Shown here one piece after another: positions 6,355 through 32,025 of a DNA stretch of 64,000 bases. The notes below the pieces were generated by a model that saw only the letters and a program-made list of their open reading frames with translations, was not told the origin of the DNA and did not search any database. The translations under genes and the position numbers were made by a program. Where the stretch lies: positions 1,901,447-1,965,446 of the forward strand of contig OY762926.1 of NCBI GenBank assembly GCA_963666735.1. The letters are read 5' to 3'. Origin of the DNA: Gemmatimonadota bacterium (GTDB lineage: Bacteria > Gemmatimonadota > Gemmatimonadetes > Palauibacterales > Palauibacteraceae). The stretch's first letter is position 1. Every line of letters starts with the position of its first letter.

Positions 6355-8998
<2,644 letters not shown>

Positions 8999-9012
8999 GC
9001 GCAGGCCAGACG

Positions 9013-9051
9013 ACGTGGTGCGCTACGGCTCGATGTCGTAGCGCACCACGT
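9013..9051. terminator. Perfect 15-bp stem / 9-nt loop hairpin between convergent katG and the propeller gene; recurs at module junctions
   Basis: ACGTGGTGCGCTACG (9013-9027) and CGTAGCGCACCACGT (9037-9051); no U-tract, so the terminator role is inferred. Confidence 0.5.
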
Positions 9052-10210
9052 ACGGGATGTCGAGCGCGTCCTTCTCCACGACCCAGATCTCGGCTTGGTT
9101 CGCAGACTCGACCACCGAGGAGGCGGAGAGCCGGACGCGGCCGATTCCCGCCCCTGACGCATCCAGGACAAACCACCATCTTTGGCCCTCATCATTGGGG
9201 CCGGCGAGCCATGTCGTTCCGTCACTGCCCGCCGTGAGATGCGTCACCGGTGGAAAATACTGGCGACGTTCGTAGAACTCCCGCAGGGCACCGGCGAAGG
9301 CCCGCCGGTCGACGATGCCGCCGCCGCCCGCCGCACCATAGATCTCGTTTTCGAAGAAGCCACTCGGGATCTGACGCGGCTCGTAGGCAAAGCGGCGATG
9401 AAACAACGTGTCGCCCCGAACATCGATTTTCGCGACCTCGAACTCGGCGGGGCCCCTGCCGAGCCAACTCTTCCGTCTGACGAGTACGGCCCCCGATCCA
9501 TCGGGCGCGAAGGATATCATGTCGTCGTCCGGAAGCGGATGGGTCACGAAATCCCATGTGTCGCGCGGTAGTCCAGCCGTAATCTCGGCAGTCTGCCCCG
9601 CCACCGACCGCAGCGTCAAGGTGTCAAGCGTGGCGATGTCGGCATCGGAAACAACCACCGGCGTCTCCGTGATGCCGCCCCGGGTGAGGCCCACTACGGA
9701 CAGGACTTCGGATCCCGCCAGGCGACCGTCGGCCAGAACGGCCCTTGGCGCAATTCTATCAATGTAATAGGTATCGGGAACGTCGACCCGGTACGGTATC
9801 GTCTCGGCCGCGCCGGTCTCCACATCTATTAATGTGAACCGCAAATTTCTGAAATCGGCTACCCAGAGCCGCGACTCGTACCAGCCCATCGACGACGGCG
9901 AGACGAACTCGCCCGGTCCCTGGCCCCGGCCCCCGAAATCTCGGACGAAGTCACCATCGCGCGTGAAGGCCCTGACTACTCCATCCTGAGACAGCAGCAC
10001 GTACACACGATCCGAGTCCGCCAACACATCACGAACGACGGACAAGCCGTATCTCGGGTCGTCCGCGCTGCCAATCCCGACAACGCTCGTGAGCGACCAC
10101 TCACGGATTCCATCGAGCGCTTGTCCAGAAAGTCGAGCGGAGCCACTCGCAACCGCTGCTGCCCAAAAGAGGACTTGGATTGCGTGCGAACTGCGTCTTT
10201 TCATCCGCAC
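9023..10210 (-). CDS. Secreted NHL-like (6-bladed) beta-propeller protein, family C copy 1
   Basis: Sec signal peptide, FGGRGQGPGEF blade motif, C-terminal DALDIPYVVRYDIEP; paralog of 18167-19351 and 20160-21332. Confidence 0.8.
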   Translation of the reverse strand: MRMKRRSSHAIQVLFWAAAVASGSARLSGQALDGIREWSLTSVVGIGSADDPRYGLSVVRDVLADSDRVYVLLSQDGVVRAFTRDGDFVRDFGGRGQGPGEFVSPSSMGWYESRLWVADFRNLRFTLIDVETGAAETIPYRVDVPDTYYIDRIAPRAVLADGRLAGSEVLSVVGLTRGGITETPVVVSDADIATLDTLTLRSVAGQTAEITAGLPRDTWDFVTHPLPDDDMISFAPDGSGAVLVRRKSWLGRGPAEFEVAKIDVRGDTLFHRRFAYEPRQIPSGFFENEIYGAAGGGGIVDRRAFAGALREFYERRQYFPPVTHLTAGSDGTTWLAGPNDEGQRWWFVLDASGAGIGRVRLSASSVVESANQAEIWVVEKDALDIPYVVRYDIEP

Positions 10211-10213
10211 GCC

Positions 10214-10687
10214 TTACAGCCGCAACCGCGAGGTGGCGGCGCGAATCCGGCTCTCGGCGGCTGGCGAATACCACTTCGAGATGATCCCACCATCGCATGA
10301 CCGACTGGTTTCCGTCGCGCTCCCCGTTGGTGCTGGAGAACTCACGAAGTACGCGAACCCAGCCAACAGCGGGACCGCTTGCCTCAGCGCCGCCGAGCCG
10401 GGAAGCTCCCCCGACGCTGGCGGAGAAACGCGCCCATCGTGCATGACGAAGAAGATGCACAACCCGGAGAGGCGGCAGTACCCGCACCTGGGTGTTGAGC
10501 AATGATCGGCGAAACCGATCGGTCCATCCGCGGAGCAGTACATGCACCCGTCCTCCGCCTTGAAACAGGTCCAGCACGGACCTTCTCCTTCCTGTGCAAC
10601 TTCCTGTGCGACGGCGGATTCCGTGGCCGCCATGCACGTCAGGATGGCGAGACCGAGGCCGAACATGAGAAGTCGTGCGCTCTTCAT
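10214..10687 (-). CDS. Secreted Cys-rich protein, family B copy 1
   Basis: AGGAGGAGG RBS, ATGA overlap with the upstream gene, signal peptide ending AVA-Q, CWxC..CxxC..CxTPxCxxC..C core, RSCDGGI tail. Confidence 0.8.
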   Translation of the reverse strand: MKSARLLMFGLGLAILTCMAATESAVAQEVAQEGEGPCWTCFKAEDGCMYCSADGPIGFADHCSTPRCGYCRLSGLCIFFVMHDGRVSPPASGELPGSAALRQAVPLLAGFAYFVSSPAPTGSATETSRSCDGGIISKWYSPAAESRIRAATSRLRL

Positions 10688-11769
10688 CGTCCTCCTCCTT
10701 TGCTTCCACTCGAGTTTGGGACGGTTTCCCAAGAGTACTTCACGAGTTCGATGCGGTTCAACGTGCGTATCGCGAGGAGTACGGGGGCGTCCGCAGCGCT
10801 GGCAACGAGTCCGAACGGAGCATCGACGGCCGTGTACCTGAGGAAGCGCCCAGCGGGGTCGAACCAGAGTAAGAGCCGTTGGTCGGTGCCGCGGTGTGCC
10901 AGGGTCTGGACGTATCCGGGCCCGACCGCGACAACGGAAGTCGCGCTCCAGATGCCGGTATCGAAGCGCAAGGAACGGGTGGCATCGTCAGCGAACCAGT
11001 CCGCGTCGACTTGCTGCAACGCCAAGGGCACCCACTTCGTGCGGGTGCCGAGGCGCCATGCCCGGAAGGGGCTGAAGCTCTGCCATACCAGCACCTCATT
11101 ATCCCCGGATGCCAGCGAGATGGCCCTTGTGTACGTCGAGTCGGGCGTCCAATGGCCTCGGCTGGCTGGGAGTCGGAGGTTAGGTGGCGAGGAATCGGGG
11201 AACGCCAGGAACCACCCGGTCCCGGTTCGCGCCGCCCCGCCGGCATCCCGCACGGCCGGCAAGCTCCGCCGGGCAATGAGGTTCCCGTCCGTGTCGGCGA
11301 CGACCAGATCACCGCTTGCGGCGTCGACGATTTCCAGCTTGGCCTCGTCGAGGAACCCGACGCCGACTGCTTGTCCGACTTCATCCGGGAGGATGTCCGT
11401 CGCGACAGCGCCGCGGTACACGCGAACACCCGGCTCGCCGTGGAACCAGGCGACGATCAGTTCCCCCGACGGTGACGGGACCGCTCCCCGTAGCAGTCTC
11501 CCCTGCGGTATCGCGACGCTCGCCTGCTCCGTCAACTCGACTGAGGCGTTCGACCGCTGAGGAGATGTTGACTGTCCGAATTGCATCGCCGGCGGCATCG
11601 GTTCGTTTCGGATCGAATCCGCATAAGATCCGGCGGGATGGGAGAGGAGCAGAACGGGAAGCGCAAGGCGGACGCGACCGACCCGGCTGCCCGGCGGGCG
11701 TTCCCGGGCATGTCGCCGACAACGGCGAATGTATGAGGCGTTCCAAACTGCGTGTTCGATTCCCCACAT
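10684..11769 (-). CDS. Exported beta-rich (probable propeller-like) protein, family A copy 1; start uncertain
   Basis: Clear homology to 23112-25731 ([40 protein letters not shown]). Confidence 0.7.
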
Positions 11770-11897
11770 CGAAACTGCTCGTCATGTCAAGAAAAACAAA
11801 GCCGACTCGACCCCTCCATCCTACCCCCCCCCCTAAGCCGGCCGTCAACCCCTTTGACGCCGTGGAAGCCGGCGGCGGGCGAGGCTCGATGGCTCCC

Positions 11898-12476
11898 TGC
11901 GCGGCGGCCATTGAACGGGCTGCGCGCGCTGCCGGGCACGACGTGCAGGTGCCGTTCGCGCCGGGGCGGACGGATGCATCGGAGGAGTGGACGGACGCGG
12001 AGTCGTTCGTCGTCCTCGAACCCGTCGCCGACGGGTTCCGCAACTACGCGAAGGCCGGGAACAACGGCTCGGCGGCCGAGCGTCTCGTGGAGAAGGCATG
12101 CCTGCTCACGCTGACCGCGCCCGAGTTGACGGCGCTCGTCGGCGGCATGCGCGTCCTCGACGCGAACACCGGGCAGTCCGCGCACGGCGTGTTCACGGAC
12201 CGGCCGGGCGCGCTGACGAACGACTTCTTCGTGAACCTGCTCGACATGAGCACGGAGTGGCGGGCGGCCTCCGATGGCGCCTTCGAGGGCCGGGACGCGG
12301 CCTCCGGCGACGCCAGGTGGACCACCACCGAGGTGGACCTGGTGTTCGGTTCGAACTCCGAACTCCGGGCCCTCGCGGAGGTGTACGCGTGCGGCGACGG
12401 GCAGGCGGCGTTCGTACGCGACTTCGTGGCGGCCTGGAACAAGGTGATGAACCTCGACCGGTACGACCTGACCTGA
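11898..12476 (+). pseudogene. katG: Duplicated 3' fragment of katG
   Basis: Near-identical to katG from about 8440 to the stop; no 5' part; carries variants such as SAHG, FFVNL and [11 protein letters not shown]. Confidence 0.92.
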
Positions 12477-12500
12477 TCGCGGAGCGGACGGCGTGGTGCG

Positions 12501-12545
12501 CTACGGCTCGATGTCGTAGCGCACCAGGTAGGGGATGTCGAGCAC
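12501..12545 (-). pseudogene. C-terminal remnant of a family C propeller gene
   Basis: Reads VLDIPYLVRYDIEP* and retains the junction hairpin. Confidence 0.7.
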
Positions 12546-12567
12546 GCGACCTTCGATCACGAGGACC

Positions 12568-13722
12568 TCAGAGCCCCTCGATATCGAGCGCTACGATGGA
12601 GGATTCTTCGAAGCTGCCGGTGTGGAGGGTCCAGACCCTGCGCCCTCTCGCTTCCAGTAGTCGGTGATCTTCGGGAAGGCGGATCGAGCCGAGGAATTGT
12701 CCGGAGGAGAGAAATACGTCATGTATGGCTCCCGGGGCCCCGTGTGGGCCGGATGCACCGGGGGCGGGGCGGTCCCGCTGGACCCAGATCCGTCCATCCG
12801 CATCGACGAAGATCCGGGAGATGATCGCCGGTTCCGGGGGCTCGCCGATTTCGCGAAGGGCGGCCTGCCACGCCTCGGGCATTCGCTCATCCGCCTCGCC
12901 ACCCCGCTCGGCAGGCGAGAGCGGGAGGGCTTCAGCGGGATGACAGAACCGCACGCGCATTGTGTCATCCCGGTCGGAGACCGTCAGTTCGTACCGTCCA
13001 TCCGGGTGCGAGACGACCCAGGTCTCCGCGCCCACTCCCACCAATGACCGTGGCCATGCGGGCAGGATCGTACGCTCCAGGACTCTGGCGCCGGACCGGG
13101 TGACCGTATCGTTCACAGGACTGGCGGGAGACCAGCGGACGAAGGACCGCTCCTCCCAACCATCCTCGATGGGGCCGGGGAACTCCAGCCATACGGTGTG
13201 ATCCGGCTGTAGCGCCACGAACGTGACCTCGCCGGATGCGAATACCGGTGACAGGAACGCCGCATCCACCGCCGTGACGGTGGCCGAGCGAGAATCGAGA
13301 TCCAGTGTGGTCAGCCGAAACGCCCCGAAGTCCAGCACGAGGAGCGTGTTGGCATCTTCCCAGGTCACCGCGGCGGGTGCCTGGACCTCACCGGGGCCTT
13401 CACCGCGGGTCATGACCGGCCCCAGCCAATCTCCATCGGGGTTGAGCAGAATGACTTCGGCGAGGCCCCAGTCCGCGATGGCCACCGATCCGTCCGGGCT
13501 TACGGCGACGTCAGCCGGGAAGATCAGTTCTTCCGCTTCCTCGGAGCCTCCGACACGCCACACTTCACGCCAGGAGAGCTCCGCCGGCCACTCGCCGACG
13601 CGCGTGTTCCTTACAACCCGACCATCGGTGTCGGTGACCTCGCACGCGGTGGATGCGGGTCGGTCACAAGCGGCGATGGTCGCGGCCAGCAGCAACGTCA
13701 CAGTCCGGGATCGCAGGGCCAT
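12568..13722 (-). CDS. Beta-propeller lipoprotein (family G)
   Basis: Lipobox TIAAC, TRGEGPGEV blade motif, IFVDADGRIWVQR, HDVF...GQFLGSIRLP. Confidence 0.78.
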   Translation of the reverse strand: MALRSRTVTLLLAATIAACDRPASTACEVTDTDGRVVRNTRVGEWPAELSWREVWRVGGSEEAEELIFPADVAVSPDGSVAIADWGLAEVILLNPDGDWLGPVMTRGEGPGEVQAPAAVTWEDANTLLVLDFGAFRLTTLDLDSRSATVTAVDAAFLSPVFASGEVTFVALQPDHTVWLEFPGPIEDGWEERSFVRWSPASPVNDTVTRSGARVLERTILPAWPRSLVGVGAETWVVSHPDGRYELTVSDRDDTMRVRFCHPAEALPLSPAERGGEADERMPEAWQAALREIGEPPEPAIISRIFVDADGRIWVQRDRPAPGASGPHGAPGAIHDVFLSSGQFLGSIRLPEDHRLLEARGRRVWTLHTGSFEESSIVALDIEGL

Positions 13723-13754
13723 GTGGTGACACTGACCGGCCGACGGGCTCACGG

Positions 13755-14894
13755 TCAACCGGGATCCTCCTCCCGAAAGCTGAGCTTTGCGATGCGCCAG
13801 GGCGGGAAACGGGTGTCCTGAAGGACATAAAGATGCCTCCCCCCGCCCAGGACCCGTGAGTTTTCCGGTAGGGGCACGTCCTCGTACAGTTTGCGGCCGG
13901 TGTCACGGTCGTAGATGTCGAGGGAAGCATGATACGCGCCGAAGGCCCCCCCGGATCTCGGGGAACGGAAACGGCCGTGTACTACTGCGAGATAGGAACC
14001 AACCACAGCGATGTGCGAGATCGTGCTGCGCCCCCCAAGCAACTCTGGTATTTGGGTGCCGTACCCGCCGGGCCCGAACGCACCGGACTCGAACACGGGA
14101 ACCGGCTCGAACGTCGGGGGTGGAACACCGAATTCACCGATCGAATCGCCTGTCGCGTTCAGGATCGCGACAGGATAGCGGAGAGAGAATGCCATGTAGA
14201 TGGAGTCGCCCGCCACGTCGAACGAGAAGCGTGCGATCGAATTCCAGTAGGGTCTCTCCGCAGGAAGAAACGGCCACGTGTACGAACTCCACACCACCTC
14301 GTTCTCCCTGAGGCGATGCAGCATCAGGGGGCGACGATGGAAACGCGAGAGGTCGTCAGCCCCACCCGATACGCCGCCGAGTCTCATATCCAACAGGAGG
14401 TCGTCGCCGATGGCCTTCGCACGCCAGGGAATCCCGGGTAACGAAACCGTGGTGTCCGCCAGCAGCTCACCGGTCAACCAAGTCAATCGGGTCTGACGGC
14501 TATCGAGCACGGCGACCCGGCCCGAGCCTGTTTCCGCCAAGCCATCGATGCCCTGGAACTCGAAGGGGCCCACTCCGAATCGTCCGAAAGCTGCCTCGAG
14601 CCGACCGTGCTCGTCGTAGCTCCGGACCTTGGGGAGCTGCCCGTCACTCAAGAGGAAGCCCCTGTTAGCACGCTCCTGAAAAATGCCAGGCACGGCGATC
14701 GAGTCCTCCGGACTCTCTTCCAGCACGATGACCGTGTCGGTATCGAACGCAACGTCCAGTGCGATCCCGGCTAATGGTTCCGCAGGATCGGGCGCGATGT
14801 CGCATGCTACAATAGCCAGCACCGTCACGAACGGGGCGGTAGAAACCCGCCACCGCCGCCGCCTGAGACCCGTCAAGATCCTATTGAATGACAA
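13755..14894 (-). CDS. Beta-propeller lipoprotein, family F copy 1 (start 14894 or 14876)
   Basis: Lipobox AIVAC, FGRFGVGPFEF; close paralog of 28769-29863. Confidence 0.78.
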   Translation of the reverse strand: MSFNRILTGLRRRRWRVSTAPFVTVLAIVACDIAPDPAEPLAGIALDVAFDTDTVIVLEESPEDSIAVPGIFQERANRGFLLSDGQLPKVRSYDEHGRLEAAFGRFGVGPFEFQGIDGLAETGSGRVAVLDSRQTRLTWLTGELLADTTVSLPGIPWRAKAIGDDLLLDMRLGGVSGGADDLSRFHRRPLMLHRLRENEVVWSSYTWPFLPAERPYWNSIARFSFDVAGDSIYMAFSLRYPVAILNATGDSIGEFGVPPPTFEPVPVFESGAFGPGGYGTQIPELLGGRSTISHIAVVGSYLAVVHGRFRSPRSGGAFGAYHASLDIYDRDTGRKLYEDVPLPENSRVLGGGRHLYVLQDTRFPPWRIAKLSFREEDPG

Positions 14895-14995
14895 TGACGT
14901 AGCGCCATCGGACGCACGGTCTTGGATGCGATTCCGAAGGTAAAGAGCACCGCCAGCACGGTGGCGATACGGGTCAATTGTGCGAACCGGTCCAT
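14873..14995 (-). pseudogene. Family E peptide gene lacking its Cys-rich core
   Basis: AGGAGG RBS; MDRFAQLTRIATVLAVLFTFGIASKTVRPMAL matches the E leader; an out-of-frame VIVIQ* tail follows. Confidence 0.7.
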
Positions 14996-15007
14996 TTTCT
15001 CCCTCCT

Positions 15008-15500
15008 TTAGGGATTCACGAGTTGACTACGAATGAGGCCGGTCGTGAGAGTTCCACGCAGAACGCCCACCTGAGCCTCGAAGTTCCAACCACAATCGGA
15101 GGCGGCGTTTCTGGAATCGGCCATCAATACGACTCCGGTGCGATCGACGAGAAGCTTCGTGCTCGGGAGAAGTGGCCCGAGGGCGGCCTCCAGGTCTTGT
15201 CGCGATGCGGCGGTGAACGTCGTGCCACGCAACGCCCGTCGCGCATCCTGAGACACGTCGTCGTCACCAACCACCACGACATGGCGCTTCAACGCGTATC
15301 GTCCCCAAGAGCATTCCATACGGCCGACCTGCCACTCAAGCAGGTTCGGCACCGTGCGACATCAACGATCCAAACCAGGTGTGCCTCCGCAGGATCCGGT
15401 TCTTCGAGTCCGAGCCACGACAGGGACGCCGAGGTGCCGACCAGACGGTCCCGGACGTTCGTCCGCCACCGTGCCTCCACGGGCTCGGCCGGTGCCACCG
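15008..15500 (-). pseudogene. Family D CxxC protein, frameshifted and 5'-truncated
   Basis: Two frames (15289-15498 and 15008-15352) together align to 30162-30758; shift near 15295. Confidence 0.8.
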
Positions 15501-15519
15501 TCGCCAGAATGGCGATGGC

Positions 15520-15760
15520 GAAGCAACGAACCCGAATGGCGCCTCGACAGCGACATATCGCACGAATCAGCTCTGCTCGTCGAACCAGAGGAGAATGCGG
15601 TCGTCAGTGCCGCGATTTGCCAGCGTCCCGACGTAGCCGGATCCGATCGAGACGACGGAAGTTACGCTCCAGATCGCCCGACTCGCACGCAAAGCATCGG
15701 CGATGTTCCGCCGAACCAGTCGGCCGACACACGCTCGAACTCCAGGGGCACCCAGTCGCG
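15520..15760 (-). pseudogene. Internal remnant of a family A gene fused to the D remnant
   Basis: DWVPLEFERVSADWF / IWSVTSVVSIGSGYVGTLANRGTDDRILLWFDEQS*FVRYVAVEAPFGFVA, with a frameshift and a stop. Confidence 0.75.
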
Positions 15761-15998
15761 GCCCGCTTTCTCCTCATCCGTACCATCTCACCTGATCGCA
15801 GGCCAGACGACGTGGTGCGCTAGGTGTAGATGCCACGATGGTTGTTCACCGGATCGACGAGTAAAATGAGAGTTCCCGTCAGAGAGCTCACACCCTACTC
15901 GTCGGAGGATCCGGTGAACGTGCACAAGAATGCGAAGTTTGGAGTTACCCCGATTTGGTGGACACCTTTGAGCGTTGGTCACAACGAGGAGGTGTCGC

Positions 15999-16307
15999 AT
16001 GTCGGGACGGAGATACGCGCCGGAGTACAAGGCGCGGATGGTGGAACTGGTCCGTGCGGGACGGAGCGCGGACCGGCTGGCTCGCGAGTTCGAGCCCTCG
16101 GCGACGGCGATCCGGCGCTGGGTGGAGCGGGCCGACCTGGACGAGGGGCGTCGCACCGACGGTCTGACGACGGTCGAGCGCAAGGAAGTCCGGGAACTGA
16201 AGCGCGAGCTTCGCCGGGTGAAGATCGAGCGCGACATATTGGCAAAAGCCACGGCCTGGTTCGCCAAGGAGAGCGGATCGATCCCCCGGGGGGGTTCCGG
16301 TTCGTGA
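15999..16307 (+). CDS. IS3 transposase OrfA
   Basis: MSGRRYAPEYKARMVELVR HTH; ERDILAKATAWFA. Confidence 0.85.
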   Translation: MSGRRYAPEYKARMVELVRAGRSADRLAREFEPSATAIRRWVERADLDEGRRTDGLTTVERKEVRELKRELRRVKIERDILAKATAWFAKESGSIPRGGSGS

Positions 16308-17155
16308 GCGATCACCAGGCCATGTATCCCGTGCGCGTGATGTGCCGCCTGCTGGGTCTCTCCCCGAGCGGGTACTATGCGTGGCGGACGCGGGAGCCGT
16401 CTCGGCGGGCGCGGGAGAACGAGGCGCTCAGTGCGGAGATCGTCGAGATCCACGCCATGAGCGGGGGGACGTACGGGGCGCCGCGGGTCCATGCGGAACT
16501 CAAGGCGCGGGGCCGCGAGGCGGGTGTGGGCCGGGTGGCGCGGCTGATGCGGGCGGCGGAGATCGAAGGGGTGAGCCGGCGCCGCAAGGGCAGTACGACG
16601 AAGCGGGCCGCGAAGTCCAGGCCCGCGCCGGATCTCGTGGACCGAGACTTCTCGGCCTCCGGACCCGACGAACTCTGGGTGGCCGACATCACGTACGTGC
16701 CGACCTGGGCGGGCTTCCTCTATCTGGCCGTCGTGCTCGACGCCTGGAGCCGCCGCATCGTGGGCTGGTCGATGGCGACGCACCTGAGGACGTCCCTGGT
16801 GCTGGATGCCTTCGACATGGCGCTGGCGCAGCGGCGCCCCGACGGGGTGATCCACCACAGCGACCAAGGCAGCCAGTACACGTCCTACGCCTTCGGCGGG
16901 CGCTGCCGGAGGGCCGGGGTCAGGCCCTCGATGGGCTCGGTGGGCGACGCTTACGACAACGCCATGTGCGAGTCGTTCTTCGCCACGCTGGAGTGCGAAC
17001 TGATCTGGCGGCGCTCGTTCCGGACGCCCGGCGAGGCCCGCCGGGGGGTGTTCCGGTTCATCGAGGGCTGGTACAACCCGCGCCGGCGGCACTCGAGCCT
17101 CGGCTACGAGTCGCCCGCCAGCTTCGAGGCGCGCGAGAAAGGAGAGGCGGCGTGA
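16304..17155 (+). CDS. IS3 transposase OrfB (DDE)
   Basis: rve-type DDE motifs; GTGA overlap with orfA and a G7 run at 16288-16294. Confidence 0.85.
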   Translation: MSDHQAMYPVRVMCRLLGLSPSGYYAWRTREPSRRARENEALSAEIVEIHAMSGGTYGAPRVHAELKARGREAGVGRVARLMRAAEIEGVSRRRKGSTTKRAAKSRPAPDLVDRDFSASGPDELWVADITYVPTWAGFLYLAVVLDAWSRRIVGWSMATHLRTSLVLDAFDMALAQRRPDGVIHHSDQGSQYTSYAFGGRCRRAGVRPSMGSVGDAYDNAMCESFFATLECELIWRRSFRTPGEARRGVFRFIEGWYNPRRRHSSLGYESPASFEAREKGEAA

Positions 17156-18166
17156 CCCCCCGGGCCGCGGCCCTCTCCCGCGAGGTGGCGAGAATGGAGG
17201 AAACCACCACTTTCACCTGTCCACTAAAACGGGGTAAGCCCAGTTGACGCCCGCGGGGCGAGCGGTGCTGGTGAAGCGGGTGCTGGCCGGGGAGCCGGTC
17301 GAGGTGGCGACGCGGGAGATGGGGGTGAGCCGCCGGACGGGGTTCAAGTGGCTCAAGCGGTTCCGGGAGGAGGGAGAGGAAGGGCTTCTGGACCGTAGTT
17401 CGAGGCCGCACCATCACCCGCGCCGGATCCCTCGGCAACGGCGCCGCCGGATCGAGCGGTTGAGGCGGGAGCGCTGGAGCTGTCCGCGGATCGCCGATCA
17501 GTTGAACATGCCGGTCTCTACGGTGACGCTGGAGGTGAGGCGGCTGGGTCTGAGCCGGTTGGAGAAGCTGGCGCCTCCGGAGCCGGTGGTGCGCTACGAA
17601 CGGTCGCGGCCGGGGTCTCCGGTGCACATGGACATCAAGAAGCTCGCGCGGATCGTACGGCCCGGACACCGGATCGACGGGGACCGGAGCAAGAGGGTCC
17701 GGGGCGCGGGGTGGGAGTACTACCACGCGGCGGTCGACGACGCGTCGCGGGTCGCCTGCGGAGATGTGCTGCCCGGCGAGCGGAAGGAGGACGCGGTGGC
17801 GTTCCTGTTGCGGGTGGTCGCCTTCTTCGGGAGCCAGGGGGTGAAGATCAGCCAGCTCATGACCGACAACGGGGGCTGCTACCGGTCGAAACGGTTCCGG
17901 CGGGTGCTCCGGGAACTCGGGATCAAGCACATCTTCACCCGTCCCTACACGCCCAGGACCAACGGGAAGGTGGAGCGCTTCATCCGCACCTCGCTCGCGG
18001 AGTGGGCCTACGACCGGTCCTATCCCCACTCGCGCGTGCGGACGGAAGTCCTCCGCATCTGGCTCCGCTACTACTACCTGAGGCGACGACACACCGCCAT
18101 CGGACGCCTCACACCCATGCAAAGACTCGTCGAGCTAAGGGTCACCAACGTCCTTGGCATCTACAG

Positions 18167-19351: not shown

Positions 19352-19371
19352 TGCCGTTCCCTCCCTACCGC

Positions 19372-19833: not shown

Positions 19834-19990
19834 CGTCTCTCTCCTTTGTTTCGGTTGGAATCTCGGACGCTTGCCCAAGATACTTCACGAGTTCACTGGC
19901 ATTCGGCGTTCGCATTGCGAGTGCGGCGCGTGCCTCCGTGGCGCTGCCGACAAACCCGAAGGGTGCTTCGACCCTGGTGTCCTCAGGTGG
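19830..19990 (-). pseudogene. 3' remnant of a family A gene
   Basis: TRVEAPFGFVGS...LAMRTPNASELVKY, then a frameshift; it still supplies the RBS for B copy 2. Confidence 0.7.
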
Positions 19991-21332: not shown

Positions 21333-21338
21333 TCCCCC

Positions 21339-23115: not shown

Positions 23116-25731
23116 CGTCTCTCTCCGTTGCGCCGGATGGAGTCTCGGGCACGTGCCCACGAGTACTTCACAAGTTCACTGGCATTCAGCGTTCGCACGG
23201 CGAGCACGACGGGGGCCGCAGTGCCGCTCGCAACGAGTCCGAAGGGGGCCTCGACCTTGGTGTACTTCAGGAATCGGCCATGTGAGTCGAACCGGAGCAG
23301 GAGCCGTTCGTCGGTCCCGCGGTGCGCCAGAGTCTGCACGTATTCGGGCCCGACGGCGACGACCGAGGTCGAACTCCAGATGCCGGGATCCAGCCGCAAT
23401 GATTGGGCCACGGCATCGGCGAACCAATCAGGATTGACCCGTTCAAGCTTCTCGGGCACCCAATCGATGGCGTTCCCGATACGCCACACCCGAAAGGGGC
23501 TGGAACCCTGCCACACAAGGGCTTCTCGCCCAGCCCCCCCAAGTGCGACAGTCCTCGCGTAAGCGGAATCCGGCGTCCAAGTACCGTTGCCCGCTGGCAG
23601 TTGCAGGTGGGACGGCATCGAATCGGAACCGGAGATTGCGACGATCCACCCGGTGGTTGTCCACGCCGCCGCGCTGGCTTCCCGCGATCCCGGTAGGCGG
23701 CGCCGAGTATGTGCGACGCCCGCAGTATCGGTGGCGACCACCTCGCCGCTCGCGGCATCCACGATCTCCAGATCCTTCTCGTTCAGGAACTGAACGCCGA
23801 TCGCGCGCCCCACGTCGGCAGCGAGGATGTCTCTCGAAGCGGATCCACGGTACACGCGAACGCCCGGAGTTCCGGCGAACCAGGCGACGATCAGGTCGCC
23901 CGACGGCGAGAGCGCTGCGCCGCTGAGCAGGCGATCTTCCGGGAGAGCGATGGCGGCTCGCTCGGTGAACTCGATTCCCTCTCTGCCAACACGCGCGAGA
24001 CACGAGAGGAGCAAGAGATTAGAGTAGGGCGAGACAGAGAGATTGAGGATGGAACGAGGAGAAGGAATGAAGGTGAACGGAACGCCCCTCTCTTCAGGGG
24101 AGGGCGGGCGAAGCGCGGCGGCTTCCGCGGCGGATCCGGAGGTGTCGGCGAAGGCGACGCGGCGGCGCTTCACGGCGGCGTACAAGCTGTCGATCGTCGA
24201 GGAGGCGGACGCCTGCGAGACGTCGGGCGAGATCGGAGCGTTGCTTCGGCGCGAGGGATTGTACGGCTCGCACCTGTCGGCGTGGCGGAAAGCGGCGCGG
24301 GAGGGATCGCTGCGGGGGCTGGCGAAGAGACGCGGACCGAAGCCCTCGGGCGGGAAGCGTGAGGCGAGGAGGGTGCGGAAGCTGGAGCGGGAGAACGCGC
24401 GGTTGCGCGAGGAACTCCGCAAGGCGCGCATCATCATCGATGTCCAGGGAAAAGTTGCGGGGCTGCCGGGCGTGAGCCCCGGGGACGGGAAGCGCTCTTG
24501 AGCGCGGCCGGAGGCTTGGCCGGGCACGTGGGCGTACGCGCGGCGTGCGAGGCCCTCGGGGTCGCGCGCGCCACGTTCTACCGTCGCCGGAGGCCGAAGA
24601 CCGGGCGGCGGCGGCCCCGGCCGGCTCCCGCCCGGGCCCTGGACGCGGCGGAGCGGGCGGAGGTCTTCGGCGTGCTGTGCTCGCCGCGCTTCGCCGACCG
24701 CGCGCCGGCGGAGGTGTACGCGACGCTGCTGGACGAGGGCGTCTATCTGTGTTCGGAGCGGACGATGTACCGGATCCTGGCCGAGAACCGGGCGGTCCGC
24801 GAGCGCCGGGCTCAGCGCAGCCATCCCAACCACCCGAAGCCCGAGGTGGTGGCCAAGGCACCGAACGAGGTGTGGTCTTGGGACATCGCCCGGCTGCTGG
24901 CGCCGGAGAAGTGGCGGTACTTCTATCTGTACGTGATCCTGGACATCTACAGCCGCTACGTCACCGGATGGATGGTGGCGGAGCGCGAGACCGCAGGCCT
25001 GGCCGGACACTTGGTCGGCGAGACGTGTCTCAGGCACGGTGTGCGGCCCCGGGTCCTCACGCTGCACTCGGATCGGGGATCCCCCATGACGGCCAAGTGC
25101 ACGGCGCAGCTCCTGGCCGACCTGGGCGTCACGCAGTCGCTGGGCCGCCCCAGGGTCTCGAACGACAACCCGTACTCGGAGGCGCACTTCAAGACCCTCA
25201 AGTATCACCCGGGCTTCCCCGGTCGGTTCGGCTGCATCGAGGAGGCGAAGGACTTCTGCCGGGAGTTCTTCCAGTGGTACAACACCCAACACCGCCACGG
25301 CGGCATCGGCCTGCTCACCCCCGAGCAGGTCCACCTCGGCCGCGCCCCCGAGGTGATCGAGCAACGGCGGAACGTGCTGGCCGCGGCCTACGCCGCCCGC
25401 CCCGACCGCTTCGTCGTCGGCCCGCCGAGGGCTGTGGAACTCCCGGAGGAAGTCTGGATCAACCGCGCACTCCCCGTCACGCCGGTTGATGGATCGGAGT
25501 CGGCCAACGGGAGGAAGGAGGCCTCACTAAACTGAATCGGAAAGTGTCTCACATTCGTTGGCAGGTTCCGATTTCCGAGGCCGCCTGTGCCACCGGTTCG
25601 ACGCTCTCCGCCCCTGCCCGCCGGTCATCGGGGATCCCGTCACGAGCGTGCTGTACGTCACCGCATCCCGATGCGAGGGCGCACGCAACGACAGACCACG
25701 TGAACAGATTTTGGATCCGGGCTCTGTGCAT
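23112..25731 (-). pseudogene. Family A lipoprotein interrupted by an IS
   Basis: N-terminal MHRARIQ...ALASGC lipobox; removing the IS restores AASEI-EFTERAAIALP in frame. Confidence 0.85.
23977..25568 (+). mobile_element. IS3-like element (orfA 24067-24501, orfB 24498-25535)
   Basis: RRRFTAAYK HTH orfA; WSWDI, LHSDRGS, SNDNPYSEAHFKTLKY; subterminal IR TGCCAAC..GAGACAC / GTGTCTC..GTTGGCA; CGATT repeated at 23972-23976 and 25569-25573. Confidence 0.88.
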
Positions 25732-25834
25732 TGTCCCATTCCCGATTCCGGGGAACCCGAACATCGACGACTTCGGCATGGTAGCTCGTGTTGCGCGGCA
25801 CCTGCAACCAGAGAGAAAATCGTATCAACTTGAC

Positions 25835-26545
25835 TCAGACTGTGTACTCTTGATCAAGAATGACTACTCGGTCCGATTCGGCCGGAAGGATGGGCCGGAC
25901 ATGGTCCGCCGTGAACGCTGCGAAGAGCCGGTCCGTCGTCAGCCGCTCCAGTTCCCCCGACCGGCGAAGCTCGTATACCCTGAGGACCGAGAGAGCGGCG
26001 AGGAACGCGCCCAGCGTCGTGGCCCCGTTCGCTCGCGCTCCGAACTGCTTGAACAGCGTGACTGGCGCACAGCCCACGTCCCCGGCCAGTTCCCGCACGT
26101 TGCGAACCGGTCGGTCGGCAGCCTGCCGCACCGCATGAACGAGGGCCGCCTGGAGAGCGGAAGGCAACGACGAGCGCTCGAACGATTTCGCCAAGCTCCA
26201 CAGACCCCGTGTCGCGCGCGCGGCGTCGAGGCGGGGCCGGAGACCCGTTCGGTATTCGGTGAACCAGACCATCGCCGCCACACGCACGCGAAGCAGTTGC
26301 CTGGCCAACTGGGGATCGGGATTCGTCACGAGAGCCACCGGCACCCACGGCCGCTCGCGCTCGAACCTCGCCAACAAGTCGATCTGCGCCGGCCGAACCC
26401 GGCCCACGCAAGCGATCACGACCGCCTCGACCTCACGGTCGAAACTGGCGAGCGCTTCGGTGGCGTCCGCCTCCCGGGCGCCGGGGCCCGCGGCTCGGCA
26501 TACCTCCCGGGCTGTCTGCGGCGTGTCCGCGACTACAAGGATCAT
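25835..26545 (-). CDS. Pseudo-receiver + HTH (AraC-like) regulator, copy 1, with an in-frame deletion
   Basis: MILVVADT receiver-like start, VRELAGDVGCAPVTLFKQF HTH; lacks 30 aa present in copy 2. Confidence 0.65.
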   Translation of the reverse strand: MILVVADTPQTAREVCRAAGPGAREADATEALASFDREVEAVVIACVGRVRPAQIDLLARFERERPWVPVALVTNPDPQLARQLLRVRVAAMVWFTEYRTGLRPRLDAARATRGLWSLAKSFERSSLPSALQAALVHAVRQAADRPVRNVRELAGDVGCAPVTLFKQFGARANGATTLGAFLAALSVLRVYELRRSGELERLTTDRLFAAFTADHVRPILPAESDRVVILDQEYTV

Positions 26546-26980
26546 GGCGGCCTCTGCGGCCTCTTCTGAATGGGAACGCGGCGGCGCCCCGCATTCGATG
26601 TACCTCCGGTCTCTACTCTCTAGACGCCATGAGCGAGCGAAACCCCGCACGAGCCGGCCGACCGGATGGCGAACGTTCATCGGCGTTCGTCTCGTAGACT
26701 GCTTGTAACACAATGTGTGGCAGTCGATTAAGAAGGTCGGCGTCTGAGCCCGGGAAGCAGCGGCGGCTGCGGTGGGATCGCCGGTGGCCGTTGCATCGAT
26801 CCCACGAATCGTCGTGGGACTCGGTCGAATTCGGCGCCAAGAGCAGCGGCGGCGTCCCGGTCCGGCTTGAGGCCGGCACCCGGTTGACACCACATTGATG
26901 GACATCTGGAGGTTTGCCATATGCGGACGGCCGCTCCGGCGACGCGTCGCAGTGAACCTTTCAGCGGGAGATTCTGGGCG

Positions 26981-27349
26981 ATGGGGTTTGATGTGATCGG
27001 ACTCATCACGGTGGTGCTGGCCATCATCGGCGTGGGCGTGAAGCTGGAACTGGGCAACCGCAAGCTCGGCGGCCGGGTCGGCAAGATGCGCGACGAACTC
27101 CGGGGTGAGATCCGGGACACGCGCGACGAACTCCGGGGCGAGATCAAGGATGTGCGCGACAAGCTCGGGAACGAGATCGGTGCGCTCCGGGGCGAGATCA
27201 AGGACGTGCGCGACAAGCTCGGGGACGAGATCGGTGCGCTCCGGGGCGAAGTGGCGAAGACGAGCACGTCGGTGGCCCGGCTGGAGGGCCATGCCTTCGG
27301 CATTCCCTTCCCGGACGCCGGCGGCGGCCGAGGGATTGGTCAGGGCTGA
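26981..27349 (+). CDS. Small membrane-anchored coiled-coil repeat protein
   Basis: N-terminal hydrophobic helix, RDELRGEI repeats, VARLEG end. Confidence 0.7.
   Translation: MGFDVIGLITVVLAIIGVGVKLELGNRKLGGRVGKMRDELRGEIRDTRDELRGEIKDVRDKLGNEIGALRGEIKDVRDKLGDEIGALRGEVAKTSTSVARLEGHAFGIPFPDAGGGRGIGQG
27088..27250 (+). repeat. Nested 33-nt and 54-nt coding tandem repeats
   Basis: gcgcgacgaactccgggg twice, 33 nt apart; ctccggggcgagatcaagga...gagatcggtgcg twice, 54 nt apart. Confidence 0.8.
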
Positions 27350-27409
27350 CGGAGAACGGCCGGTGTGATCCGACCGCAACAGCCGGCGCGACGAAACGTG
27401 TTGGTGACG

Positions 27410-28689
<1,280 letters not shown>

Positions 28690-28768
28690 CGGCGAGACAG
28701 CCGCCGCGGTGCGTTACGGCACGATGATTTCCGGGAGGCCTCGGATCCGTTCAATCGTCACCCTGGCG

Positions 28769-29863
28769 TCACCCTGGACTCTCCTCGCGGAGGCTGAGCT
28801 TTACGATGCGCCAGGGCGGGAAACGGGTGTCCGCGAGAAGGTACAGGTGCCGCCCGCCACCCAGAATCTGTGAGTTCTCCGGTAACGGCACGTCCTCGTA
28901 CAGTTTGCGGCCGGTGTGCCGGTCGTAGATGTCGAGCGACGAGTGGTACTCGGTGAAGCCAACCTCGGAGCCAAAGCGTCCGTGTACGACGATTAGGTGA
29001 GACCCCACCACCGCCATCTGCGAGATCGTGCTGTGGCCCCCAAGCAGGTTCGGTATCTGATTGGCGTACGCCCCCGGAGCAAGGGCACCCGGTTCGAACA
29101 CGGGAAGGGGGTCGAACGAAGCCGGGGGAACGCCGATTTCCCCGATCGAGTCGCCCGCCGTGTTCAGGACTGCCACCGGATAGCGGACAGAGGAGGCCGT
29201 ATAGATCGAGTCGCCCGCAACGGCGAACGGAAAGACGACTAGCGAAATCCAATACGGCCTCTCCGCCGGAACGAAGGGATACCGATAAGCGCTCCATGCC
29301 ACTTCGTTGTCCGTTAGCCGGTGCAGCAGCAGAGGACGCCGGAAGAAGCGTGAAGCGTCCTGTGGTCGCTCGGCGGCCCGCATCATCCCCACCAGCAGGT
29401 CGTCGCCCATTCGTATGACGCCCCGCGGGACCCCTGGAAGTTGTACCGTGGTATCGGGCTCGAGTTCTCCGGTCAGGTACGTCAAGCGACCGCTCCGCGA
29501 GCCGAGGACCGCGATCTTGCCAGAGGCAGTCTCGGCCAAACCGTTGATGCCCTGGAACTCGAACGGGCCCTCTCCGAACCGTCCAAAGGCCGCTGCAAGC
29601 CGCCCATCCTCATGGTAGCTGCGGATCCTCGGAAGCCGTCCATCGCTCAGGAGGAAACCGCTTTTCACGCGTTCCGCAAAGATTCCCGGGGTTGCGATCG
29701 AGTCTTGCGGATCCTCACCTAGCGTGATCACCGCTTCGGTTTCGAACACCTCCTCCAGTGCGACCCCGGCCGGCGGCTTGTAATCGGGTCCCGCCGCGCA
29801 CGCCGTAATCGCCAGACCGGCCGCGAACGGAGCCGGACAGCTCGCTCGCGCAGCCGCCCGCAT
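28769..29863 (-). CDS. Beta-propeller lipoprotein, family F copy 2
   Basis: Lipobox AITAC, FGRFGEGPFEF, DTRFPPWRIVKL. Confidence 0.78.
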   Translation of the reverse strand: MRAAARASCPAPFAAGLAITACAAGPDYKPPAGVALEEVFETEAVITLGEDPQDSIATPGIFAERVKSGFLLSDGRLPRIRSYHEDGRLAAAFGRFGEGPFEFQGINGLAETASGKIAVLGSRSGRLTYLTGELEPDTTVQLPGVPRGVIRMGDDLLVGMMRAAERPQDASRFFRRPLLLHRLTDNEVAWSAYRYPFVPAERPYWISLVVFPFAVAGDSIYTASSVRYPVAVLNTAGDSIGEIGVPPASFDPLPVFEPGALAPGAYANQIPNLLGGHSTISQMAVVGSHLIVVHGRFGSEVGFTEYHSSLDIYDRHTGRKLYEDVPLPENSQILGGGRHLYLLADTRFPPWRIVKLSLREESPG

Positions 29864-29879
29864 GAGAGCGATCACGAGC

Positions 29880-30137
29880 TTACCGGACGACGATCTCAGG
29901 CAGGCAGCAAACCTCCCACGTCGTCCAGCACGCCGAGCCTTCACATGTTTCCCACCAAGGGTCGCGATGCTGGAGGTCCACACACGGGCCAACTTCCTCC
30001 TCCCATTCCTCGACGCACGGGTCCCCACTGTCCTGTCCTTTCAGGGCCGAGGGGCCGACGGTCGTCGATGCGACCGCGAAGATGAGAGCCACCGCGAATG
30101 CGGTAGCGATACGTATGAACCGCGAGAACCTGTCCAT
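29880..30137 (-). CDS. Small secreted six-Cys peptide precursor (family E)
   Basis: AGGAGG RBS, signal-like leader, acidic Trp-rich core with 6 Cys ending CCLPEIVVR. Confidence 0.75.
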   Translation of the reverse strand: MDRFSRFIRIATAFAVALIFAVASTTVGPSALKGQDSGDPCVEEWEEEVGPCVDLQHRDPWWETCEGSACWTTWEVCCLPEIVVR

Positions 30138-30161
30138 TCTTCCCTCCTAACGGGATTCGAG

Positions 30162-30758
30162 TTAACTGCGGATGACGCCAGTGGAGAGAGTCCCCCGCAA
30201 GGCGCCGACCTGAGCTTCAAAGCTCCAGCCGCAGTCCGAGCCGACAGCCCTGGAATCGGCCATCACTACGACTCCGGCGCCATCAATGAGTAGCTTCGTG
30301 TTCGGGAGAAGTGGACCCAACGCTGCTTGCACGTCCCGTCGTCGCGCTTCCGTGAGGGCCGTGCCCCGCAGGGACCGACGCCCATCCTCCGGTACGTCAT
30401 CCGTATCAAACACTACGACATGGCGCCGCAACGAATCGTCGTCTCCGAGGGCATTCCAAACGGCGGGCCTGCCACTCAGGCACGTCTGACAGCGTGCCAA
30501 ATCGACGATCCAAACCAGGTGCGCCTCCGCAGGATCCGGTTCTTCGAGTCCGAGCCACGACAGGGACACCGCCCTTCCGACCAGGCGATCCCGGACGCTC
30601 GACCGCTCTGCGAGCGGAGCCGTCGACTGCAGCGTCGCCGCGAGCTCGCGGTTCGACGCGGCCGTGTTCCAGACCGCGACCGCGCCGCAAAGCACCAGGG
30701 CGAACACAGCCAAGTCCAGAACCTTCCTGAAGGATTTTCCTGCAGCCATGAGCCCCAT
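30162..30758 (-). CDS. Membrane-anchored CxxC (thioredoxin-like) protein, family D
   Basis: N-terminal TM helix, LVWIVDLARCQTCL, LPNTKLLIDGAGVV; the fold is inferred. Confidence 0.65.
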   Translation of the reverse strand: MGLMAAGKSFRKVLDLAVFALVLCGAVAVWNTAASNRELAATLQSTAPLAERSSVRDRLVGRAVSLSWLGLEEPDPAEAHLVWIVDLARCQTCLSGRPAVWNALGDDDSLRRHVVVFDTDDVPEDGRRSLRGTALTEARRRDVQAALGPLLPNTKLLIDGAGVVVMADSRAVGSDCGWSFEAQVGALRGTLSTGVIRS

Positions 30759-30855
30759 CCGCCTGCGATGAAACCGGGTTTCTCCTCGGGCTCAAACTGT
30801 ATTCCCCAGCGAGGTTACGGCAACGGCTATAGTGTATCGGTTTTGCTCAAATCGA

Positions 30856-31647
30856 CTACTCTTGGTCGAAAGTGAATACTCCGACCGATTCTGCAGGCAG
30901 GATCGGTCGGACATGTTCCGCCGTGAACGCCGCGAAGAGTGGGTCCGGGGCCATCCGCTCAAGCTCCCCGAGCGGGCAGCCCGGCCATGCGCGCACCCTT
31001 CGGGCCAAGGTTGCCCGGTGTATCTCCGTGCGGTGTAGCACGCGCTTCCAGCCTAAACCCGACCGGCGAAGCTCATGCACCCTGAGAACCGATAGAGCGC
31101 GGAGGAAAGCGCTCAGCGTGGTCGCACCGTCTGCTCGCGTTCCGAACTGCCGGAACAGCGTGACGGGTGCGCAGCCCACGTCCCGGGCCAGTTCCCGCAC
31201 GTTGCGAACCGGTCGGTCGGCCGCCTGCCGCGCCGCATGAACGAGGGCCTTCTGGAGAGAGGAAGGCAACGACGTGCGTTCGAACGATTCCGCCAGGCTC
31301 CACAGGCCCCAAGTCGCACGCAAGGCGTCGAGCCGGGGTCGGAGACGGGTCCGGCGTTCGGTGAACCAGACCACTGCCGCCACACGCACGCGAAGCAGTT
31401 TCCGGGCCAACTCGGGGTCGGGATTCGTCACGAGCACCACCGGCACCCACGGCCGGTCACGCTCGAACCTCGCCAACAGGCGGACCTGCTCGGGCCGAAC
31501 CCGGCCATGGCAAGCGACCACCACCGCCTCAACCTTACCGTCGAGAGTGGCGAGCGCTTCGGTCGCGTCCGCCACACGGGCGCCGGGGCCCGCGGCTCGG
31601 CCTACGTCCCGGGCTGTCTGGAGCGTGTCCGCGACCACAAGGATCAT
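30856..31647 (-). CDS. Pseudo-receiver + HTH (AraC-like) regulator, copy 2 (full length)
   Basis: Paralog of 25835-26545 with a second HTH-like segment WKRVLHRTEIHRATLARRVR. Confidence 0.68.
   Translation of the reverse strand: MILVVADTLQTARDVGRAAGPGARVADATEALATLDGKVEAVVVACHGRVRPEQVRLLARFERDRPWVPVVLVTNPDPELARKLLRVRVAAVVWFTERRTRLRPRLDALRATWGLWSLAESFERTSLPSSLQKALVHAARQAADRPVRNVRELARDVGCAPVTLFRQFGTRADGATTLSAFLRALSVLRVHELRRSGLGWKRVLHRTEIHRATLARRVRAWPGCPLGELERMAPDPLFAAFTAEHVRPILPAESVGVFTFDQE

Positions 31648-31770: not shown

Positions 31771-32025
<255 letters not shown>

Follow-up and report, generated by a model that had tools for sequence, protein, structure and literature searches.

The chromosome of a marine Gemmatimonadota bacterium of the family Palauibacteraceae carries, between genes for a catalase-peroxidase and a purine nucleoside phosphorylase, an array of small secreted cysteine-rich proteins and beta-propellers, and the question raised by this locus is whether these genes form functional units and what such units might do. 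The array lies within a stretch of 64,000 nucleotides (contig OY762926.1, positions 1,901,447 to 1,965,446), referred to below as the window; its G+C content is about 68%, and the host genome (G000) is a single contig of 3.98 Mb. Relatives of the proteins encoded here are listed in databases under Candidatus Palauibacter, a Gemmatimonadota genus. A preliminary description of this DNA had proposed two types of minus-strand module, lipoprotein A, cysteine-rich protein B and propeller C (A>B>C) in three copies, and CxxC protein D, six-cysteine peptide E and propeller lipoprotein F (D>E>F) in two. All of the module genes were found on the minus strand where they had been placed, and the five modules of two types are real. 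Two of the five are intact and three are decayed, the damage consisting of insertion sequence (IS) elements, a 144-bp deletion and a frameshift. The locus thus holds a real, conserved and apparently undescribed cassette of known folds, set in an informative decaying array.

The intact A>B>C copy (window positions 9023-11769) consists of A1 (10684-11769), B1 (10214-10687) and C1 (9023-10210), and the intact D>E>F copy (28769-30758) of D2 (30162-30758), E2 (29880-30137) and F2 (28769-29863), all on the minus strand, as are the other module genes given below. Judged by eye, the products of D, E and F and of A, B and C carry export signals or a membrane anchor. By profile comparison, C is an exported NHL six-bladed propeller and F an NHL six-bladed propeller lipoprotein. 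The C family profile (A7) matched the solved NHL domains of Thin, TRIM2, TRIM3 and TRIM71 at E-values (E) of 6.6e-23 to 4e-15, and also the PDB entry 4raa, a 'putative exported protein', at E 3e-4; the F family profile (A5) matched solved NHL domains at E 8.5e-13 to 5e-8. The lipobox cysteine of F2 is invariant across 9 sequences. Among 15 F proteins 20 columns are invariant. All are Gly, Pro, Ala, Val, Leu, Phe, Trp or Tyr, and charged residues, His, Ser and Cys are absent from them, as would be expected of a binding scaffold more than of an enzyme. For C1, the Pfam matches to DUF5128 (PF17170) and TolB_like were both below threshold. Against the PF17170 cut-off of 22.9 bits, C1 scored 21.0-21.8, C2 17.9-19.0 and C3 24.2, and F and G (an extra propeller described below) gave no match to this model. 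Across the genome PF17170 gave 45 matches, 23 of them over the cut-off, and this propeller family as a whole has 43-45 matches.

The first protein of the A>B>C module is probably a divergent propeller, as judged from structure modelling. The AlphaFold2 (AF2) model of A1 is all-beta (pLDDT 61, pTM 0.61), its best Foldseek match was the NHL domain of TRIM2 (E 6e-8, TM 0.58), and language-model features agree with the propeller assignment. At the sequence level no relative of A was found beyond its own family, no link to the PDB was detected, and comparison of the A and C profiles indicated no relation (probability 0.9%). The A family comprises 18 clusters in 5.8e9 proteins, the six named ones being Palauibacter or Gemmatimonadetes. 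A had been described as a lipoprotein; it is exported, but A1 has a plain signal peptide and a lipobox cysteine was seen by eye only in some relatives.

B1 is predicted, from its signal peptide and conserved cysteines, to be a secreted nine-cysteine protein with a mature part of about 125 amino acids. Eight N-terminal cysteines in CxxC-like pairs are invariant or nearly so in the B family, followed by a variable linker and an invariant ninth cysteine within a conserved C-terminal motif. B1 gave no Pfam or NCBIfam match, no family, fold or look-alike was found for B, the AF2 fold computed from 22 sequences was unusable (pLDDT 45, pTM 0.22), and the ESM Atlas gave no usable match. E2 is predicted to be a secreted acidic peptide with a precursor of 85 amino acids, of which the mature part is about 45; its six cysteines all lie in the mature part and are invariant in the family. 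The net charge of mature E is -4 to -11 in 18 of 19 examples, and E2 had no match in Pfam or NCBIfam, the A, B, D and E families all being without a model in either library. E and B are the fastest-evolving members of their cassettes: in 15 triads the mean pairwise identity of E was 0.33 vs 0.45 for D and 0.44 for F, and that of B was 0.43, the partners of E and B ranging over 0.44-0.59.

D is probably a membrane-anchored thioredoxin-fold oxidoreductase, as far as its sequence allows the assignment. It has an N-terminal membrane anchor, and among 52 sequences the first cysteine of the CxxC motif (C90) and a third cysteine are invariant and the second CxxC cysteine (C93) is nearly so. The motif is of RCxxC type, stands at a conserved position and is followed by a later Pro-containing loop, as in a thioredoxin fold. 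The best PDB matches of D were thioredoxin-like proteins at E about 0.1 (best 0.094), in which the CxxC pairs with the thioredoxin active site, and two of the 52 relatives matched Redoxin. A PDB search with a genus-only D profile gave no match, and no longer, fused relatives of D were found, which is weak evidence.

The arrangement of these genes recurs in other genomes far beyond chance, for A>B>C and D>E>F alike. Within this genome, the A, B, D and E families were found nowhere outside the array of the window. B was detected in 6 of 19 other Palauibacter genomes and, outside the genus among 400 other genomes of the phylum sampled, only by matches at E 1e-4 or weaker. Each of the 12 B loci in these six Palauibacter genomes has a C-type propeller next after B, and A lies upstream in 10 of the 12; the A>B>C operon was found only in Palauibacter. 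E and D occur together in 7 of 35 other Palauibacter genomes, every time as D>E>F. The view that the peptide gene sits directly upstream of a propeller gene in a conserved unit is therefore upheld by both sets, with B>C in 12 of 12 loci and D>E>F in all seven other genomes that have E. Some genomes hold several cassettes (for example three in G326), and doubled F genes follow the cassettes in the sister genomes G393 and G326.

D reaches much further than the genus. At least 150 cluster representatives of about 200 amino acids were matched by the D profile among 1.84 billion proteins, and 30 of 401 genomes of the phylum (G000 included) had a match, in three further families of the class. A class-wide sample of synteny was taken from 13 enlarged D loci of 10 further genomes. 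D, a six-cysteine signal-peptide open reading frame (ORF; cysteine pattern C..C..C..C..CC) and an F-like propeller were present together in 12 of the 13, in the order D>E>F in 10 loci and E>F>D in 2, and E was directly upstream of the F gene in all 12 complete loci, those with a moved D included. The remaining locus (L079) has D and F-like genes and no six-cysteine ORF. The D-E-F order is kept in two orders of the phylum, with protein identities of 24-45%. A scan by DNA pattern, run with a 13-row D alignment, covered 185,579 species genomes and gave 23 D loci, 22 of them labelled Palauibacter, Longimicrobiales or Gemmatimonadota; the only D homolog labelled outside Gemmatimonadota (L096) is on a 2.8-kb contig of a 'Bryobacterales' bin, which may be mis-binned. 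As found, D-E-F is class-wide and A-B-C genus-only. Around the 20 D loci whose neighbours were compared, D and the propellers are the only recurring families, and no maturase, exporter or protease is conserved. We therefore rejected a ribosomally synthesized and post-translationally modified peptide, for which no maturase recurs at these loci; as had been pointed out previously, the island itself contains neither a maturase of this kind nor an ABC/C39 exporter.

The same three-part theme was found elsewhere in the host genome with a different enzyme. In three places a propeller paralog has immediately before it a DsbA-like gene that scores above the Pfam cut-offs (Thioredoxin_4 and DSBA); in two of the three, the DsbA-like gene itself follows a signal-peptide ORF containing 8 or 6 cysteines, and one of these ORFs ends in CC. 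The order cysteine-rich peptide > DsbA-like > propeller is found at L108 (G000:C1:2414966-2417131) and L106 (2942088-2944378). At L110 (G000:C1:2420532-2422558) a six-cysteine signal-peptide ORF is followed by a frame of 609 amino acids that combines a membrane anchor, a DsbA-like domain and a propeller-like C-terminal part, the last of which matched 4 of 68 propeller paralogs (phmmer, E 5e-10 to 3e-7). By eye, L108 and L106 lie just downstream of ORFs resembling transposase or integrase fragments, and at L108 a second six-cysteine ORF follows the propeller. DsbA-like genes are ubiquitous in other genomes (148 of 151, a tally that takes in four genomes flagged unpublished). Among the best 28 DsbA-like loci of other genomes, a comparison that leaves out the unpublished locus L142, a propeller lies downstream in two, both with a cysteine-rich ORF upstream; such an ORF is present in 1 of the 26 others.

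A scan for small ORFs upstream of 33 propeller paralogs yielded mostly high-GC noise and was superseded by a location-blind filter for a signal peptide and many cysteines. This filter retained 12 small ORFs genome-wide: six are upstream of propeller frames, with about 0.27 expected, one is just downstream of such a frame and one precedes the L110 fusion. Of the remaining four, three resemble spurious Arg-rich frames. Further cysteine-rich signal-peptide ORFs were noted beside propeller paralogs at L111 (2901680-2902231), L112 (2430844-2431080), L113 (3066082-3066399) and 295467-295844; the ORFs at these sites have 7, 7, 9, 10 and 4 cysteines and belong to peptide families unrelated to B or E.

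On this basis, the best reading of the cassette, in which we place moderate confidence, is that a dedicated oxidoreductase folds the peptide, which then works together with its propeller. The peptide E would be exported through Sec. Membrane-anchored D of the thioredoxin fold, or a DsbA-like stand-in, would form or correct the three disulfides of E after export, and the folded, acidic E of about 45 amino acids would then act with the propeller lipoprotein F, which may bind E rather than act as a catalyst. A>B>C would be a genus-only variant, in which the nine-cysteine B is paired with the NHL propeller C and the divergent propeller-like A, and which would depend on the general DsbA/VKOR system. 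Most telling for a joint function of peptide, oxidoreductase and propeller is the recurrence of the arrangement with an unrelated enzyme of thioredoxin fold. An involvement of disulfide chemistry, as suggested before, is likewise indicated by the conserved CxxC of the weakly thioredoxin-like D and by the DsbA-like genes that replace D elsewhere.

A number of observations weigh against this reading. The thioredoxin fold of D depends on profile matches at E about 0.1 and the two Redoxin matches, D2 matched none of the Pfam and NCBIfam models, and its CxxC is not preceded by Trp, the residue usually found before this motif in thioredoxins. The A-B-C cassettes have no oxidoreductase gene of their own, and the genome has a general DsbA/VKOR pair, so that a dedicated enzyme is not obviously needed. 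Most of the approximately 40-68 propeller paralogs have no cysteine-rich neighbour. E and F are both acidic, so that simple charge complementarity is absent. Prediction of a complex of F2 (residues 39-380) with mature E2 (36-85) gave ipSAE values of 0.00 and 0.01, which, run without controls and with the fold of the partner uncertain, speak neither for nor against binding.

Co-diversification of the peptides and their propellers had been proposed in the preliminary description. Mantel correlations of pairwise distances were calculated for 15 triads of D-E-F (D-F 0.94, E-F 0.77 and D-E 0.75) and for 8 modules of A-B-C (B-C 0.95, A-B 0.48 and A-C 0.50). The distances are congruent in both supposed pairs; this is, however, what linkage alone predicts, since neighbouring genes are copied together, and the matrices are no demonstration of co-evolution, which also counts against the reading. 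One hint beyond linkage, from 8 modules only, is that the distances of B follow those of C much more closely than those of A, its other immediate neighbour.

The array itself records how these cassettes come and go. The second A>B>C copy (18167-19990) has kept an intact NHL propeller C2 (18167-19432; 60% identical to C1 over residues 28-395) and an intact secreted nine-cysteine protein B2 (19372-19833), and its A gene is reduced to a remnant of about 200 bp (A2, 19786-19987). In the third copy (20160-25731) the NHL propeller C3 is intact (20160-21332; 53% identical to C1, and the one just passing the PF17170 cut-off), B3 is split and A3 is truncated at its 5' end. A 1.3-kb element of the IS3 family (copy b, 21549-22854, minus strand) divides B3 exactly between codons 87 and 88, leaving a 3' part (21342-21548; residues 88-156 of P0187 at 98.6% identity) and a 5' part (22855-23115; the tblastn match to P0187 begins at 23115, and residues 1-87 are identical up to the IS element). 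P0187, an uninterrupted form of B3 with 156 amino acids, is present in the protein collection (2 member sequences, 4 contigs), which suggests that the insertion is recent or polymorphic. A3 (23112-24000), which matches residues 77-347 of A1 at 62% identity, is cut off at the 5' end by a second IS3-type element (24043-25535, plus strand; orfA and orfB, with HTH_Tnp_1 and rve domains), which it abuts at 24043. Another remnant of an A-family gene lies at 15523-15754. The three copies of type 1 thus exist as three sites, only one of which is intact.

The same applies to the two copies of type 2. The D>E>F copy at 12568-15500 is orthologous to a cassette of the sister genome G393 (94-97% identity) and has intact F1 and G and broken E1 and D1. 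F1 (13755-14894; 94% identical to its G393 ortholog) is an NHL propeller lipoprotein by the profile match given above, and G (12568-13758; 97% identical to the G393 ortholog), recognized before as an extra propeller, is an NHL-like lipoprotein without a peptide gene of its own, as judged from a weak NHL match and a lipobox seen by eye. E1 is a remnant of 40 codons (14873-14995), from which 144 bp are absent in comparison with its G393 ortholog (L033, 8059-8202), the deletion removing the whole cysteine-rich part; the window therefore contains one intact copy of the six-cysteine peptide, not two. D1 (15000-15466) is a pseudogene with a frameshift and a lost 5' end, its match being split over two frames (at the DNA level 96.8% identical to its G393 counterpart, with a single gap). 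All three decayed cassettes have kept their terminal propellers intact (C2; C3; F1 and G).

Regulator-like genes are present at both of the sites where a pseudo-receiver/helix-turn-helix (HTH) gene had been described as heading the blocks, and the family heads A-B-C and D-E-F blocks in several sister loci. The receiver part of that description was not supported: no Pfam or NCBIfam model was matched, receiver models included, and only a weak TetR-type HTH was seen (E 0.04-0.06; residues 138-210 of Reg2). Reg1 (25835-26590, minus strand) has an internal deletion of 30 amino acids (alignment A11), Reg2 (30856-31650, minus strand) heads D2-E2-F2, and the real coding part of these genes is about 264 amino acids.

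The island is bordered on the left by full-length katG (catalase-peroxidase; 6395-8998, plus strand) and on the right by punA (purine nucleoside phosphorylase; 32200-33000, minus strand; PNP_UDP_1, E 3.7e-52), and the 23 kb between them consist of minus-strand genes, IS elements and duplicated fragments of the flanks. This katG is 85-94% identical to the katG genes beside the same cassettes in sister genomes. In two sister genomes, G058 and G082, punA and katG converge with only about 50-60 bp separating the matched ends. B was found in neither; in G082 there was no credible match to D or E (a single E match, at E 0.004, lies within an 885-amino-acid frame), and in G058 E was not found and D gave only a weak match (E 0.002, with stop codons). 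As these sites are empty, the whole 23-kb stretch represents an insertion into an otherwise empty katG/punA site. In a further sister genome, G100, the site carries an insert of about 3.1 kb (G100:C1:52071-55213).

Traces of the growth of the array are seen as copies of the flanking genes. A duplicated punA 3' fragment (27409-27944, minus strand; 96.5% identical to 32199-32734) abuts a duplicated katG 3' fragment (27944-28726, plus strand; 94.3% identical to 8253-9035) head-to-tail at position 27944, the junction expected from tandem duplication of the whole inter-gene segment. Two more katG 3' fragments on the plus strand, one at 11904-12554 (92.6% identical to 8426-9074 by self-comparison) and a degenerate one at 31770-32072 (81-93% identical to the katG 3' copies), are left from earlier duplication rounds. 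Besides the elements in B3 and beside A3, the island holds copy a of the IS3-family element (15937-17253, plus strand; rve and HTH_21 domains), 99.6% identical to 21537-22854 in inverted orientation, and an IS481-like transposase (17244-18170, plus strand; LZ_Tnp_IS481 and rve domains). The G+C content at third codon positions (GC3) is 0.73-0.76 in the cassette genes vs 0.87-0.92 in the flanking housekeeping genes (aldehyde dehydrogenase, DeoC, KatG, PNP, DnaK, HtrA, trigger factor and ClpX), suggesting a foreign origin or relaxed codon selection. The best explanation is that the katG-punA interval is an insertion hot spot, in which segmental duplication and IS activity have built up five cassettes, representing two envelope operons. 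The preliminary description had missed this origin by duplication and IS insertion, along with the decay of three of the five modules, the propeller-like nature of A and the class-wide spread of D-E-F.

Other features were noted in and around the island. An apparent third copy of the IS3-family element (G000, about 3865700-3867200) lies just upstream of a frameshifted C-like propeller (3866144-3868445). An ORF at 26921-27349 (plus strand) has a high GC3, tandem repeats of 33 bp and 54 bp (27086-27249) and weak coiled-coil-type Pfam matches, and stretches related to it are found at about 3222000-3223800 of G000. Outside the island, a DUF5128-like propeller gene (43139-44530, minus strand; PF17170, 25 bits) adjoins a sigma-54 activator gene.

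Different roles could be assigned to such a cassette. The pattern of decay recalls orphan immunity, with propellers intact in three of three decayed cassettes while the upstream genes are broken, and it could be explained if E (and B) were Sec-exported, disulfide-stabilized peptides of bacteriocin type, captured in the envelope of the producer by the propeller lipoprotein and folded by D. The extra propellers without a peptide gene that follow cassettes (G, and the doubled F genes of G393 and G326), the patchy occurrence in the genus (B in 6 of 19 and E in 7 of 35 other genomes) with several cassettes in some genomes, the rapid evolution of E and the position in an IS-rich hot spot of low GC3 all agree with such a toxin/immunity role. 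We nevertheless consider it unlikely: most peptide bacteriocins are cationic, and mature E is acidic; there is no outer-membrane exporter, GG leader or ABC/C39 gene; a propeller of 380 amino acids would be unusual as the immunity protein of a 45-residue peptide; and none of the libraries searched gave a match. If, on the other hand, the tightest of the three distance correlations, that of D with F, reflects a joint activity, the thioredoxin-fold protein and the propeller might be a split extracytoplasmic enzyme resembling NHLRC2 and plant SOQ1, with the cysteine-rich peptide as its substrate, redox relay or metal carrier, for instance in envelope oxidative stress or copper handling. A DsbA-like domain is indeed fused to a propeller-like domain in this genome (L110), a TlpA-like domain is joined to an NHL propeller in NHLRC2 and SOQ1 with a conserved cleft in between (PMC6107167), and the locus lies beside katG in 7 of 19 sister loci examined. 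The link with katG is, however, explained by the insertion hot spot, and the class-wide loci are not beside katG; D has no sequence relation to the thioredoxin domain of NHLRC2, and the failure to find longer, fused forms of it points weakly the same way; F has no invariant polar residue, and A-B-C has no thioredoxin-fold partner. A redox machine of this kind is quite unlikely.

That the propellers are variable surface proteins, and the peptides co-displayed ligands or adhesion partners, within an expansion of NHL-type 'eukaryote-like' repeats of sponge and coral symbionts, appears improbable. The large number of propeller-family matches in the genome fits such an expansion, relatives include 'Palauibacter poriticola' and RHO-labelled bins, which derive from coral and sponge metagenomes, and the eukaryote-like proteins of sponge symbionts are reported to include NHL repeats. 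D-E-F is, however, also present in Longimicrobiales genomes, whose link to hosts was not examined, and NHL and propeller, like transposase, are terms unmentioned in the main text of the Palauibacterales paper (PMC10469786). There remains the view that the modules are a mere expansion of paralogs by segmental duplication, in which the small ORFs hitch-hike and no functional unit exists. It accords with the construction of the array by duplication and the decay of three modules in five, and is very improbable in view of a gene order kept across two orders at 24-45% protein identity, of six invariant cysteines kept in a peptide otherwise 33% identical on average, and of the recurrence of the theme with a non-homologous enzyme.

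The proposed folding of a peptide by a dedicated oxidoreductase for joint work with a propeller has relatives among known systems, and the cassette belongs to none of the families compared. The nearest described parallel is NHLRC2/SOQ1, which joins a TlpA-like thioredoxin domain and a six-bladed NHL propeller in one polypeptide; a membrane anchor holds SOQ1 on the non-cytoplasmic side, the interdomain cleft of NHLRC2/SOQ1 is inferred to bind a partner, and no conserved operon is reported around the bacterial NHLRC2 homologs (PMC6107167). The likeness lies in the coupling of a thioredoxin-fold module to an NHL propeller, to which the DsbA-like/propeller fusion of this genome may be added. In contrast to NHLRC2/SOQ1, D and F are separate genes with the peptide gene between them, the motif of D is RCxxC-type and not CC(I/V)NC, and no sequence relation is detectable.

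Among classical operons, that of methylamine dehydrogenase (mauB, mauD and mauA) combines a propeller subunit with a small subunit rich in disulfides and a thioredoxin-like accessory protein of about 200 amino acids that is anchored in the membrane and dedicated to the system, the propeller of MauB being seven-bladed. The operon logic of propeller, disulfide-rich small protein and thioredoxin-like accessory is alike; among the cassette proteins there was no Pfam or NCBIfam match to Mau families, and there were no mauE or mauG neighbours at the 20 D loci. A quinone cofactor of MauA type in E was rejected, as E has no conserved Trp column. In the sublancin operon sunA stands with the thiol-disulfide oxidoreductases bdbA and bdbB. 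Bacteriocin operons of this type resemble the cassette in that a disulfide-dependent ribosomal peptide is encoded next to its own thioredoxin-like enzyme in a variable and mobile part of the genome, but neither an ABC exporter nor a glycosyltransferase is present here, the peptide is acidic, its partner is a propeller lipoprotein and the host is diderm. With class II bacteriocins E shares a Sec-type signal (by eye), but it is acidic, without an exporter, and neighboured by a propeller of about 380 amino acids.

The comparison with the NVEALA-type loci of Bacteroidota was not upheld. The propellers gave weak PF17170 (DUF5128) matches, of which that of C3 just passes the cut-off; PF14055 (NVEALA) matched neither B1 and B2 nor three E-family peptides at E up to 0.1. 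A whole-genome search with PF14055 also found nothing, but its controls gave no match either, and it is uninformative. Since the literature search revealed nothing in print under the names NVEALA or DUF5128, the system chosen for comparison is itself uncharacterized. No publication on the D-E-F cassette was found in the literature searches.

Taken further, and only as a tentative proposal that we regard as possible but doubtful, the Gemmatimonadota may possess unrecognized three-part extracytoplasmic modules, composed of a Sec-exported, hypervariable, disulfide-knotted peptide, an interchangeable membrane-anchored thioredoxin-fold enzyme (of D or DsbA type, sometimes fused) and an NHL propeller that recognizes the cognate peptide. 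Such modules would be a new system for making and for sensing or neutralizing diversified cysteine-rich peptides in interactions with kin or host, and arrays such as the present one would be the graveyard of their turnover. Irrespective of this proposal, D-E-F is conserved in two orders or more of a phylum from which few members have been cultured, and the array records the gain, duplication and loss of cassettes at a single chromosomal site. If the pairing of peptide and propeller is real, it would indicate marine and host-associated bacteria as a source of small disulfide-rich peptides, and would provide a bacterial context for the unexplained association of thioredoxin and NHL domains in NHLRC2 and SOQ1.

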